The notes below the pieces were generated by a model. That model made no database searches and was not told where the DNA came from. It worked only from the letters and a program-made list of their open reading frames with translations. Positions 54,778 through 58,730 of a stretch of DNA of 64,000 nucleotides are shown here, one piece after another (positions within the stretch are counted from its first letter, which is position 1; each line of letters begins with the position of its first letter). This stretch comes from Anaerolineae bacterium (GTDB lineage Bacteria; Chloroflexota; Anaerolineae; Epilineales; Epilineaceae): assembly GCA_044228875.1 (NCBI GenBank), contig JBGAUA010000002.1:5397-69396 (forward strand), in the 5' to 3' direction. The position numbers were made by a program, and so were the translations under genes.

Positions 54778-55290
54778 TCATGCGGCGCGGTTGCGCAGGA
54801 TCCGGCGGGTGATCAGGGCGCGGTAGGCGAAGAGCAGCGGCATGCCGAGCCACATCGCCAGCCCGACGGGCAGCCACAACCAGTGCCGGCGGAGCCGCGC
54901 CTCCACATGGTCTTCGATCCAGGTTCGGTCGCGGCCTTCGGCCACGAAGCGGTGCTCGTGCCGCCAAAGGTCAAAGGGGCCCTCAAGTTGTGTATCGACA
55001 AAGCCGCCTTCGCTGACGTCGCTGATCCGCGCCGTCCAGTTGACGGGCAGCAGCCCGCCCAGCCTCAAGGTGAACCGCATCTCGTCGCCCTCGCCAAGGA
55101 CGGCCGGTGCATGGCGCAGCACGACGACGATGCCCGGCGGCGTGATGGCCGCCATGCTGTCGGAGCGGGCATGGAAATCGGCCACCCGCGCCAGCGCCGC
55201 GTCCACCACGAACCGGTGGCGATAGCGGAGCAGGCGACCAGGGTGAAGGGTTTTCGCGGTCAAGGGCGCCGTCGACCTCCCAGCCGTCAT
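54778..55290 (-). CDS. SRPBCC (cyclase/dehydrase-like) family protein with C-terminal TM
   Basis: ATG 55290 overlaps the upstream stop (ATGA). The segment FDLWRHEHRF is typical of the family commonly paired with TIGR01777 genes. Confidence 0.65.
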   Translation of the reverse strand: MTAGRSTAPLTAKTLHPGRLLRYRHRFVVDAALARVADFHARSDSMAAITPPGIVVVLRHAPAVLGEGDEMRFTLRLGGLLPVNWTARISDVSEGGFVDTQLEGPFDLWRHEHRFVAEGRDRTWIEDHVEARLRRHWLWLPVGLAMWLGMPLLFAYRALITRRILRNRAA

Positions 55291-56198
55291 GCCAGGATGT
55301 CCTGCAACGCTTCCTGCGCATGGGTGAAACGGAAGGCGTAGCCGGCCGCGAGCAGCCGCGCAGGCGCCACCTGCTGGCCTTCGAGCAGGATCATCGCCAT
55401 CTCGCCCAGGGCGAGGCGCAGGGCCGGCGCCGGCGCCGGCAGGAGGGCGGGGCGATGCAAGGCCCGCCCGAGGGCGCGTGAGAAGGCGGCATTGTCGAGT
55501 TGCTCCGGCGCCGCAAGGTTGTAGGCGCCGCTCGTGTCCTGCCGGTCGATCAAGAACCGGATCGCGCCGACAACATCGGCGATATGGATCCAGGGGAAGG
55601 GCTGCCGGCCGCTGCCCAAGGGCCCCCCGACGAAGCAGCGGAAAGGCAGCAGCATCCGCGGCAGCGCGCCGCCTTCCCCACTCAGAACGATACCGATGCG
55701 CGTGGCCACGCGCCGAACGCCCAAGGACTCCACCGCCGCGGTGGAGTCCTCCCAGTCGTGGCAGACGGAAGCCAGGAAGTCGTCGCCGGCGGGTGCTTCC
55801 TCCGTGAGCGGGCCGCTCTGTCGGGTTCCGTAGTAGCCCGCGCCGACGGCTTGCACGAGGCAGCGCGGCCGATCGCCGATCTGTTCGATCGCTGCCACCA
55901 AGGCCCGTCCGGCCCGGACCCGGCTGTCGCGGATGACCGCCTTTCGTGCCGCGGACCAACGGGCATCCGCCACACCCGCCCCGGCCAGGTTGACCACGGC
56001 ATCGCAGCCGGACAGCCTTTCGGCCCAAGCCCCCGGGTTCGCGGGATCCCAGGCAGCGACCGCGACGCCCTGGTCGGGCTTTAGCGCGTGTCGCGCCGGG
56101 TCGCGCGACAGGATGGTCACCTGGTGGCCATCCTGCGCCAGGTCGGCGCTCAGAGCCCGGCCGATCAAGCCGGTCCCTCCGGTGATGACGATGTGCAT
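55287..56198 (-). CDS. TIGR01777/YfcH-like NAD-dependent epimerase family protein (SDR + DUF1731-like C-terminus)
   Basis: ATG 56198 is preceded by GGAGGAGG. N-terminus MHIVITGGTGLIGRALSADL. 303 aa. Confidence 0.8.
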   Translation of the reverse strand: MHIVITGGTGLIGRALSADLAQDGHQVTILSRDPARHALKPDQGVAVAAWDPANPGAWAERLSGCDAVVNLAGAGVADARWSAARKAVIRDSRVRAGRALVAAIEQIGDRPRCLVQAVGAGYYGTRQSGPLTEEAPAGDDFLASVCHDWEDSTAAVESLGVRRVATRIGIVLSGEGGALPRMLLPFRCFVGGPLGSGRQPFPWIHIADVVGAIRFLIDRQDTSGAYNLAAPEQLDNAAFSRALGRALHRPALLPAPAPALRLALGEMAMILLEGQQVAPARLLAAGYAFRFTHAQEALQDILA

Positions 56199-56372
56199 GA
56201 TCTCACCTCCTCCTAAGCTGTTGACCGACAGGATTTCGGAGGACGGGGCCGGAGGCGGCCCGCTATCCCTCGCTATGCTGCCACGGAGTGGACTGCCCGT
56301 GATGGGCGCGATCATGATAACGTTTCGATGCCCCTATCGCCAAGACACCCTGGGCAATAGCTCCACAAATCC

Positions 56373-56401
56373 TTGACGGCGCCGACCGTCAACCGTACAG
56401 T
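56373..56401 (+). promoter_or_regulatory. promoter of the CarH-like gene with overlapping inverted repeat (candidate operator)
   Basis: TTGACG (56373-56378), 17-nt spacer, TACAGT (56396-56401). The inverted repeat TTGACGG-N6-CCGTCAA (56373-56392) covers the -35 element and spacer. Confidence 0.5.
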
Positions 56402-56422
56402 GATTCCCGGTACCAGCAACCC

Positions 56423-57430
56423 ATGACCACCACGCCCAACACCTCCGGCTCGCGCGGCGCCAGGGCCCTGGCCGATGAACCGATCTTCAACATCGGTGCT
56501 GTGGCCAGGATGTCCGGGCTGTCGGTGGCCGTCCTTCGCGCTTGGGAGCGACGGTACGGTTTTCCTCAGGCGCAGCGCAGTGCCGGCCGCCAGAGGGTCT
56601 ACAGCCAACGGACCCTGGATCAGCTGCGCTGGGTGAAGGCGCGCATCGACCAAGGGATGCAGGCCGGACAGGCCATCCGCGCCCTGAGCCATGCCCAGTC
56701 CGAGCTCGGCGCGCTCGTGCTAGACGCCCGCCCGTCGTGGGAGCCGTCTTCATCCTCGCGGGTGGACGACCCTGTGCTGCAGGCCTTCGCCAACCGTGTC
56801 GCCGGGGCGCTCATGGCCCACGATCTGTCCGGAGCCGATCGGATCCTGGCCGAGGCCCTGGCTGTGCTCAGCCTGGAGGATATCCTGCTCAAGGTGATCC
56901 CACCTGCCTTGGCCGATTTGGGGGAGGGTTGGGAAGCGGGCGAGGTCACGGTGGCGACGGAGCATCTGGCTTCGGCATACATCCGCCAGCGACTGTTGCT
57001 ATGGCTGGCCGAAGGGTCTCCGCCGCGCCCTGTTCCCCCCACGGTCCTGGCCTGCGCGCCCGGCGACTGGCACGAGATCGGGCTCCTCATCCTGGGGGTG
57101 CTTCTTCGGCGGCGGCTCTGGCCAATCCACTACCTCGGACCCGCCGTGCCTTTGTCCGATCTGGCGGCCTTCGTGCGCAGCACCCAACCGGCAGCCGTGG
57201 TGGTGGTGGCCACCATCGCTTCGGCGGCGGTCGCCCTGGGCGAAGGTTCGCGCGAGATGCCGGAACTGGATTCCAGTGGGCGGACGGTCTTCTGCTACGG
57301 CGGCCGCGCCTTTGGCCAGGACCCGTCCCTGCGCGACGGCCTGCCCGGCCACTACCTGGGCGACAGCCTGGAGGACAGCGTAGAGCGCCTGGACGGTCTG
57401 TTGCGTGACATCACCGGCATCGTGACCTAA
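56423..57430 (+). CDS. MerR-family regulator with B12-binding domains (CarH/LitR-type photoreceptor candidate)
   Basis: MerR HTH IFNIGAVARMSGLSVAVLRAWERRYGFP. Four-helix-bundle motif Wx9EH (GEGWEAGEVTVATEH) and B12 lower-ligand motif DxHxxG (GDWHEIG). Confidence 0.8.
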   Translation: MTTTPNTSGSRGARALADEPIFNIGAVARMSGLSVAVLRAWERRYGFPQAQRSAGRQRVYSQRTLDQLRWVKARIDQGMQAGQAIRALSHAQSELGALVLDARPSWEPSSSSRVDDPVLQAFANRVAGALMAHDLSGADRILAEALAVLSLEDILLKVIPPALADLGEGWEAGEVTVATEHLASAYIRQRLLLWLAEGSPPRPVPPTVLACAPGDWHEIGLLILGVLLRRRLWPIHYLGPAVPLSDLAAFVRSTQPAAVVVVATIASAAVALGEGSREMPELDSSGRTVFCYGGRAFGQDPSLRDGLPGHYLGDSLEDSVERLDGLLRDITGIVT

Positions 57431-57473
57431 GATTGCCGCCTGCTCAAGCCTCGCACAGCTTCAGGGAGGTCAC

Positions 57474-57878
57474 ATGGCACAACGCATCGAGGGCGAACTT
57501 CAACTCATCCTGCATTTGGAAGAACTCAAGTCGCGGCACAATCCGGAGATGGTGGGCAAGGCCGAGTATCGGGTTCAGGTATGGATAAACGGTCTGGAGC
57601 GCTGGCAGTCCGAAAAGCCGGTCAAGGTGAAGGAAGGCGGGACGGCCGTCCTCGGGGTCGGGATCCCGATGCGCCTGGAAGCCGACACCGACATCGTCGA
57701 CATCCAGGTGCTGGTCGCGGAGCTGGACCTGCTCAGCCCGGATGACCCAGCCGCGGGCGGCTTCGAGTTGTATCGCTCGGCCGGGTTCTTCGTGGGGGAG
57801 CGCTTCTCCATCCCCATCAGCGGAGCGGACACGGACATCAGCATTCAATGCCGCGTCGAGGCCGAGCCGCTGGCGTAG
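57474..57878 (+). CDS. hypothetical 134-aa protein downstream of the CarH-like gene
   Basis: ATG lies 5 nt after GGGAGG. The composition is beta-rich and the local GC is lower. I recognise no motif. Confidence 0.65.
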   Translation: MAQRIEGELQLILHLEELKSRHNPEMVGKAEYRVQVWINGLERWQSEKPVKVKEGGTAVLGVGIPMRLEADTDIVDIQVLVAELDLLSPDDPAAGGFELYRSAGFFVGERFSIPISGADTDISIQCRVEAEPLA

Positions 57879-57947: not shown

Positions 57948-58730
57948 TCAGGCCAGGTAGAGTACCTGGCGAAAAAAAGCCAATCCGTCCGGCTCCTGAT
58001 CGGCGGCGCGGAGCCGCCAGGCCGGATGTTGGAAGCGGCTGATGAAGCGCTCCGGATGGGGCATCAGGCCCAGGATGCGGCCGCTGGGGTCGGCAAGCCC
58101 GGCGATGGCGTGCACGGCGCCGTTGGGGTTCTCCGGATACTGCTCCGTGGGCCGACCCATGGCGTCGACATAGCGCAGGGCCACCAGGCCCTGCGTTTCG
58201 ATGTCTGCCAGGGTGGCCTCGTCGGCGAAGAAGCGACCTTCGCCGTGCGCCAGGGGCAGCTCCAGTTGCTCCGGCAGACCTTGTACCAAGGGGCCGCTGC
58301 CGGATGACCGCAGGCGGACCCAACGGCATTCGAAGCGCCCGCTGGCATTCAGGGCCAGGGTGGCCCGCATCGCCCCTAGTTGCCCGAAGGGCAGCAGGCC
58401 GGTGCGCACCAGCACCTGGAAGCCGTTACAGATCCCCAGGATGGGCTTGCGCGCCAGCGCGAAATCGGCCAAGGCATCGGCCAGGAAGCTGACCAGCTCG
58501 ACGGCCATCACCTTGCCGCTGACCACATCATCGCCATAGGAAAAGCCACCCGGCAGGGCGAGTACGTCGTAATCGGCGAGACGCTCTGCGCCGGAACGCA
58601 ACAGGTTCATCGGCACCACGTGGGCCTGACCCCCAGCCAGCTTGAACGCGTGCGCGGTCTCGATCTCGCAGTTGGTGCCGTCGGCCTTGAGAACGCAGAC
58701 CCGCGGCCCGCTGGGAACGGAGGCGATCAT
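57948..58730 (-). CDS. purQ: phosphoribosylformylglycinamidine synthase I (glutaminase subunit)
   Basis: The start is taken at ATG 58730 (MIASVPSGPRVCVLKADGTNCE...). It has the nucleophile context GICNGFQ and the HPE triad context LMPHPER. The long upstream extension in the track is spurious. Confidence 0.9.
   Translation of the reverse strand: MIASVPSGPRVCVLKADGTNCEIETAHAFKLAGGQAHVVPMNLLRSGAERLADYDVLALPGGFSYGDDVVSGKVMAVELVSFLADALADFALARKPILGICNGFQVLVRTGLLPFGQLGAMRATLALNASGRFECRWVRLRSSGSGPLVQGLPEQLELPLAHGEGRFFADEATLADIETQGLVALRYVDAMGRPTEQYPENPNGAVHAIAGLADPSGRILGLMPHPERFISRFQHPAWRLRAADQEPDGLAFFRQVLYLA

Follow-up and report, generated by a model that had tools for sequence, protein, structure and literature searches.

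The 64,000-nucleotide stretch of DNA analysed here (the window) comes from an activated-sludge species of Candidatus Epilinea (Anaerolineae) and carries a gene, carH, for a CarH-type regulator of the vitamin B12 photoreceptor family, whose candidate operator and neighbouring genes are the subject of this study. The carH gene (positions 56423-57430, forward strand) codes a protein of 335 amino acids. Divergent from it, an operon on the reverse strand has as its first gene that of a 303-amino-acid TIGR01777 (YfcH/SDR39U1/ThyD-like) NAD-dependent epimerase-family oxidoreductase (55287-56198) and as its second that of a 170-amino-acid protein of SRPBCC type (Bet v 1/START fold), which has a hydrophobic helix at its carboxyl terminus (54778-55290). 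Downstream, 43 nucleotides (nt) after the carH stop codon, the forward strand bears the gene of an acidic, cytoplasmic protein of 134 amino acids, named here p134 (57474-57878; Shine-Dalgarno sequence GGGAGG at 57464-57469), which is convergent with a purQ-like GATase_5 gene on the reverse strand (57948-58730). The evidence gathered on this locus is of in silico nature. It covers the identity of domains and motifs, the repeat arrays with their rarity, conserved gene order, purifying selection, predicted folds and transcripts found in situ; from it we infer B12 binding, the response to light, occupancy of the repeats, transcriptional read-through and metal binding.

CarH, the standard example of a B12 photoreceptor and a common tool of optogenetics, is known in its biology almost solely as a switch of carotenoid genes. 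Pfam, NCBIfam and alignment to the Thermus thermophilus CarH structure 5C8D assign to the window protein a MerR helix-turn-helix (HTH) domain, a four-helix bundle and a Rossmann B12-binding domain. The Pfam matches are MerR_1 (6.3e-12) and MerR (1.7e-9) at residues 23-89, a segment aligned to the DNA-binding domain of 5C8D, B12-binding_2 (1.7e-12) and B12-binding, whose 31.0 bits fall slightly below the gathering score of 32.1. 5C8D is also the top match among solved structures (E 1.5e-36). The Wx9EH motif of the helical bundle, WEAGEVTVATEH (residues 170-181, nt 56930-56965), aligns with WHRGEIGVAEEH of 5C8D, and the lower-ligand motif DxHxxG, present as DWHEIG (residues 215-220, nt 57065-57082), aligns with ERHEIG, the histidine ligand included. 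The initial annotation, made from the letters of the DNA, had recognised a MerR-family protein with these two hallmarks, and the Pfam matches and the residue-for-residue alignment with 5C8D bear it out. The three-module architecture and a closely similar DNA-binding domain are shared with the class I LitR/CarH proteins of T. thermophilus (5C8D/5C8E/5C8F), Bacillus megaterium and Myxococcus xanthus, unlike which the window protein has a longer inter-domain linker (about residues 90-125). By every criterion that a sequence can answer it is a canonical class I CarH/LitR-type adenosylcobalamin (AdoCbl) photoreceptor, its photochemistry and DNA binding being presumed. Among the 301 Chloroflexota genomes sampled, 106, about a third, have CarH-like genes, and within this family the window regulator is unremarkable. 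Its own genome (3.9 Mb, 70% GC) contains no further CarH of this type and codes a PduO-type cobalamin adenosyltransferase, so that the host should be able to make AdoCbl.

The carH promoter, TTGACG-17-TACAGT (56373-56401, forward strand), would give the transcript a leader of about 15 nt, without Shine-Dalgarno sequence. Back to back with it, a consensus scan found the promoter-like sequence TTGGCG-18-TATCAT (56314-56343, reverse strand) for the TIGR01777-SRPBCC operon, whose sequence is kept in the metagenome-assembled genome of Candidatus Epilinea brevis, the same-genus genome used for comparison. CarH proteins bind tandem 11-bp direct repeats of the form 5'-nnnnTnnACAn-3', one of which usually holds the -35 box, and pseudo-repeats are tolerated (PMC9304148). 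Repeats of this kind were looked for by scoring the four specified TnnACA positions over three consecutive 11-mers (maximum 12). The candidate CarH operator (56336-56379, forward strand) consists of three tandem repeats at 56347-56379, ACCCTGGGCAA TAGCTCCACAA ATCCTTGACGG, which match at 10 of the 12 positions and the last of which includes the carH -35 box, and of a fourth, weaker repeat, ATCGCCAAGAC (56336-56346), overlapping the -35 box of the divergent promoter. Repeats at both back-to-back promoters make it probable that the two transcription units share their control region, as the initial annotation had considered.

The array is conserved in related genomes. G001, L001 and L002 share this layout (10/12 each); G002 and G012 have 11/12 arrays on the strand facing TIGR01777, and genus g7 has back-to-back TTGACA boxes, each within repeats that score 9/12 on both strands. 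The relative L006, which has no carH, reaches just 7/12. Arrays of this quality are also rare. A score of 10/12 was attained in 0.27% of shuffles, and a scan of the 3.9-Mb genome returned eight arrays of at least 10/12, among which only those at the carH promoter (PcarH) and on contig C183 fall in low-GC, promoter-like DNA. These same two sites also stand alone when all 900 CTTGACR sequences of the genome are compared, since no other has 7/8 or more matches in its two upstream repeats. The three controls speak against a chance occurrence or a generic feature, and the direct-repeat array at 56347-56379 is likely to be the carH operator, as read from its sequence. Tandem 11-bp TnnACA repeats, one of them containing the -35 box, divergent promoters and likely autoregulation are all traits of known CarH systems, and carH is probably autoregulated.

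The operator proposed at first was another one, the perfect inverted repeat TTGACGG-N6-CCGTCAA (56373-56392), regarded as a palindromic site for autoregulation by CarH. Promoter and inverted repeat both exist, the latter overlapping the -35 box and the spacer of PcarH, and some MerR-family and CarA-type proteins do use palindromes (PMC9304148). Its left arm is already accounted for by the -35 box and the third direct repeat, and the characterised CarH proteins bind tandem direct repeats (PMC9304148). At least one equally good inverted repeat is held by 14% of shuffles of the 224-bp spacer, and TTGACGG-N6-CCGTCAA is missing from all orthologous carH promoters examined (G001, G002, G012, L001 and L002), including that of the same-genus Candidatus Epilinea brevis. 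On these two results the palindrome was rejected as the operator; its presence is probably incidental, and binding of CarH to it is very improbable indeed. The conservation of the direct repeats and their rarity in shuffles, in the genome and among CTTGACR sites lead us to take them, rather than the palindrome, as the likely operator. A further palindrome, TTCCCGGTACC/GGTACCAGCAA, lies at 56404-56419 inside the predicted 15-nt leader; carH is apparently nearly leaderless.

The second promoter array of the genome precedes a gene unlinked to carH (C183:2087-2914), which codes a secreted surface protein of 275 amino acids with two DUF4397 domains and a carboxyl-terminal anchor. An 11/12 array covers its TTGACA -35 box and a 10/12 array follows exactly 66 bp (6 x 11) downstream, in phase. 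The DUF4397 promoters of G001, G002 and G012 have 9-11/12 arrays over the -35 box (nACCTTGACAn); that of G004 is weaker, at about 8-9/12 as judged by eye. In genus g2 the DUF4397 ortholog comes directly after TIGR01777-SRPBCC on the same strand; in G004 its divergent neighbour is carH. The C183 arrays and this synteny in sister genera speak for DUF4397 as a member of the CarH regulon, which on sequence grounds likely takes in three units: carH, the TIGR01777-SRPBCC pair divergent from it and DUF4397. The domain profile matches of its likely members include no pigment or photolyase genes, unlike the targets of known CarH proteins. The leader at C183:1895-2090 is rich in TTGAAC(A/G/C) repeats, found likewise in the orthologous leaders of G001, G002 and G012, which could be extra CarH half-sites or sites of another factor.

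Carotenoid genes are absent from the carH neighbourhood, as had been remarked in the initial annotation; crtB and crtI are found outside the window, on contig C54 of the same genome, where the order at C54:492-5164 is Caroten_synth, a regulator gene, crtB and crtI. This regulator (C54:1497-2543, 348 amino acids) is a second protein of B12 photoreceptor type, with HTH_17, B12-binding_2 and B12-binding domains, a W-x9-EH motif (WEEGRIRIGDEH) and DPHHLG. Its best match in the Protein Data Bank (PDB) is CtMerR (8JBS, E 5.5e-24), a B12-binding photoreceptor-type factor of Chloracidobacterium thermophilum (8JBS/8JBT; PMC11796333). Unlike CtMerR, to which it is related by a weak match only (8JBS, E 1.4e-11), the window CarH has a classical MerR HTH and not HTH_17; the crt-linked relative of CtMerR is thus the C54 regulator. 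No array of at least 9/12 is found in low-GC DNA on C54 or on C88, and the carotenoid genes, which adjoin the CtMerR-type regulator, lie outside the proposed regulon of the window CarH. The position of that regulator at the crt cluster accounts for the lack of pigment genes beside carH. As judged from sequence, this genome has a pair of regulators of B12 photoreceptor type that differ in DNA-binding class and in the genes beside them; if true, this suggests a division of labour.

The proteins of the divergent operon belong to large families, and the labels first given to both were correct. The 303-amino-acid protein matches NCBIfam TIGR01777 with 338.8 bits (cut-off 207.35) and Pfam Epimerase (6.5e-21) and DUF1731 (1.5e-18). 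It is of the same family as ThyD/All2390 of Anabaena (TIGR01777/SDR39U1/YfcH), with 308 bits to NF050030, a score below the equivalog cut-off of 400, and its host, unlike Anabaena, has no thylakoids. High light induces ThyD 5-8-fold, and the protein is required for high-light acclimation and growth (PMC11711299), which renders a role of the window TIGR01777 gene in light stress credible. The 170-amino-acid protein had no match in Pfam and NCBIfam searches. Its AF2 model (pLDDT 86.1) gave 303 PDB matches in Foldseek at E<=1e-3, led by PR-10, PYL, norcoclaurine synthase and aromatase/cyclase proteins, and on the modelled helix-grip fold it is an SRPBCC protein. Its gene adjoins TIGR01777 in six related loci, and carH and TIGR01777 are divergent in genera g1, g2 and g7; in G016 an SRPBCC homolog comes after a more distant CarH. 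The 29 best Chloroflexota loci from outside the family have no TIGR01777, SRPBCC or p134 gene beside CarH, and the nearest out-group CarH adjoins a CrtI-like amine oxidase gene. The TIGR01777/SRPBCC-carH arrangement appears specific to this bacterial family. Searches of the literature on DUF4397 and TIGR01777/SDR39U1 gave no link to CarH/LitR among their matches, and no publication linking CarH/LitR with SRPBCC was found. If true, a carotenoid-free CarH regulon gives a light-stress context to these three large families. Transcription of p134, TIGR01777/SRPBCC and carH is seen in metatranscriptome contigs, which are of read size and without light/dark design and hence do not allow regulation to be read.

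The gene of p134 had been described at first as an open reading frame of lower GC content, 43 nt downstream of carH and with its own GGGAGG Shine-Dalgarno sequence, coding a beta-rich protein without recognisable motif. This description holds, and a C2-like fold can now be predicted for the product. The protein has a pI of 4.6 and no signal peptide. The GC content of its gene is 0.632, versus about 0.69 in the neighbours, whose GC3 it equals (0.83); this equality rules out a horizontal origin deduced from low GC and the lower value reflects amino acid composition. Five orthologs compared in pairs give dN/dS values of 0.16-0.25, an alignment of 10 homologs with identity down to 30% has 12 invariant columns, and read-sized metatranscriptome contigs fall on p134 in four runs. 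p134 is a real, conserved gene under purifying selection, and the reservation that it might be unconserved falls with the dN/dS values.

The p134 family is small and new. Pfam and NCBIfam have no match to the protein, and neither do the PDB sequences when searched at E<=10 with a profile of 10 sequences. A search of 5.8 billion proteins returned only eight clusters, and a profile search of 1.84 billion representatives about 15 true ones; weak matches to Ig, cadherin and Calx-beta repeats were discarded as remote homologs and regarded as compositional or structural noise. A survey of 61 related genomes restricts p134 to four genera of one Anaerolineae family.

Structure modelling, advised in the initial annotation, yielded a confident all-beta AF2 model (pLDDT 87.9, pTM 0.82). 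Going by their descriptions, nearly all of its top 50 PDB matches in Foldseek are C2 domains or contain one (TM 0.41-0.66, rmsd 4-8 Å), the best being the C2-like tardigrade Mn-peroxidase AMNP. The predicted fold of p134 is a C2-like beta-sandwich of eight strands, like those of AMNP (7DBU) and of the C2 domains of synaptotagmin, dysferlin C2A, cPLA2 and Trichomonas C2 (TM 0.5-0.66, Foldseek probability 1.00). In Ca2+-binding C2 domains such as synaptotagmin C2A, loop 3 has the pattern D-x-D-x5-D. The conserved loop residues of p134 are N23/E25 and E83-x-D85-x4-D90-D91, and this E-x-D-x4-D-D pattern recalls that of synaptotagmin, as a lead only. The acidic loops suggest, by analogy, a binding of divalent cations like that of C2 domains, their spatial clustering being deduced from strand alternation only. 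Unlike C2 domains, p134 has no detectable sequence homology to them, is a stand-alone bacterial cytoplasmic protein for which metal or lipid binding is hypothetical, and has a most invariant motif, NGLERW ... YRSxGF, without C2 counterpart. Stand-alone C2-like proteins are rare in bacteria. Three traits set this locus apart from known CarH systems: its presumed targets, the presence in the genome of a CtMerR-type regulator beside the crt genes, and the rare C2-like protein attached to it.

Taken as a whole, it is rather likely that the locus is explained by CarH acting on direct repeats, by a regulon free of carotenoid genes and by a p134 gene with its own promoter. In the dark, AdoCbl-loaded CarH would oligomerise, by analogy with the Thermus and Bacillus proteins, and the oligomer would occupy three, perhaps four, repeats (56336/56347-56379). 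The occupied repeats would cover the carH -35 box and abut or overlap the divergent -35 box, so that both promoters would be repressed. Light would photolyse the Co-C bond, the oligomer would disassemble and both promoters would fire. CarH would most likely also repress the unlinked DUF4397 gene, and the crt genes, next to the CtMerR-type regulator, would lie outside its regulon.

Several observations weigh against this account, on its regulator and operator as well as on the place that light would have in it. The best NCBIfam model for the regulator is CarH (NF052513), with 166.7 bits where the equivalog cut-off is 400; the model is tuned to close relatives, which limits the claim to family-level membership and does not extend it to orthology with a named CarH. 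The window array has a single perfect repeat between GCA and ACG pseudo-repeats, unlike the operators of known CarH proteins. The TM-scores of p134 to C2 domains are moderate (0.5-0.66). The host, an Anaerolineae filament that is not pigment-linked, unlike known CarH hosts, is uncultured and lives in turbid sludge. DNA of the locus was recovered from many sludge metagenomes, and the habitat, activated sludge or bioreactors with dark, turbid flocs, together with a regulon devoid of pigment or photolyase genes, would fit a regulator of CarH fold whose signal is B12 availability or the redox state instead of light. Such a regulator is improbable when set against the intact Wx9EH and histidine-ligand signatures aligned with 5C8D, the presence, in the same genome, of another regulator of B12 photoreceptor type beside the crt genes, and the role of the TIGR01777 homolog ThyD as a high-light acclimation factor (PMC11711299).

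The other points against concern light control of p134. A promoter-like sequence, GTGACA-17-TAAGAT (57405-57433, forward strand), spans the last carH codons and the stop codon; it is a candidate p134 promoter and is kept in four orthologous loci. In L006 (L006:1708-1978, Logan contig SRR22306550_218574) carH is deleted apart from its last 33 nt, which bear this site, the TIGR01777-SRPBCC pair and the 134-amino-acid gene are intact, and dN/dS of p134 is unchanged, as expected under continued purifying selection. No dedicated CarH sites were found upstream of p134 homologs that have their own intergenic region, where no array exceeds 8/12. G004 and G007 carry p134 apart from carH, as do the remote L025, L026, L075, L076 and L078, and the neighbours of the remote homologs are lexA (twice), GAPDH, DinB-like and ArsR genes. 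Four metatranscriptome runs match p134 and not carH, a result made weak by the choice of these runs through p134 words. Co-occurrence of p134 with CarH may itself be the product of one clade.

Such data would be accommodated if p134 were functionally unconnected to CarH, an independent small stress or housekeeping protein whose position reflects the inherited synteny TIGR01777-carH-p134-purQ-like. The adjacency of p134 and the purQ-like gene, which is kept in g1, g2, g7 and L023 and also in L006 and G007, where carH is not adjacent, fits this explanation as well. The association with CarH argues in the other direction. The initial annotation had advised a check of the co-occurrence of the pair, and p134 is present in six of the seven family genomes that have an ortholog of this CarH and absent from the 10 others, the exceptions to linkage in G004 and G007 notwithstanding. 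The order carH-then-p134 is kept in g1, g2 and the unbinned g7-like contig L023, down to identities of 50% for CarH and 35% for p134, and no terminator was found in the 43-nt gap, so that read-through from PcarH into p134 is probable. A p134 unconnected to CarH is possible, though we lean against it.

Our reading is that p134 is transcribed from its own promoter, with at most some read-through added from PcarH, and that light at most modulates its expression. Such modulation falls a little short of an even chance, and strict light gating is a good deal less probable. The light-controlled gene of the initial annotation therefore stands as a gene and in its phyletic co-occurrence with carH; its control by light is put in doubt by the promoter-like site, the lack of repeats and the survival of p134 without carH. 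A bolder proposal would make p134 a dedicated accessory of the CarH lineage, an antirepressor or co-sensor in the manner of CarS though of another fold, or else a metal-binding effector, in a carotenoid-independent B12-light response of the envelope or membrane with TIGR01777, SRPBCC and DUF4397, parallel to the CtMerR-type regulator; we hold this to be unlikely. In the CarH/CarA light circuit of Myxococcus xanthus, CarS is a small, acidic, all-beta protein with an SH3-like fold, coded in the carQRS operon. The comparison is a lead only; no similarity of p134 to CarS in sequence or fold was found, and p134 persists where carH is deleted or unlinked.

Homologs of p134 are divergent from lexA at L017:7988-9221 (G004) and L076:2-1022, and in L075 the upstream gene is DinB-like. 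These neighbours are hints of a context of DNA damage or UV stress for the p134 family, and p134 may act in a light/UV-damage stress context. The L076 spacer beside the lexA-adjacent homolog contains GGAAC-type repeats. In the window, the purQ-like GATase_5 gene stands without purS or purL, and the known RNA families present are only two tRNAs, far from the carH locus. A secreted metagenomic protein of 628 amino acids, P0026, has at residues about 350-628 two tandem p134-like domains with the pattern V.L.I.S.KV.DD.D..GDGE..F.V.VNG..., so that the p134 fold also occurs as a repeat module of larger proteins.

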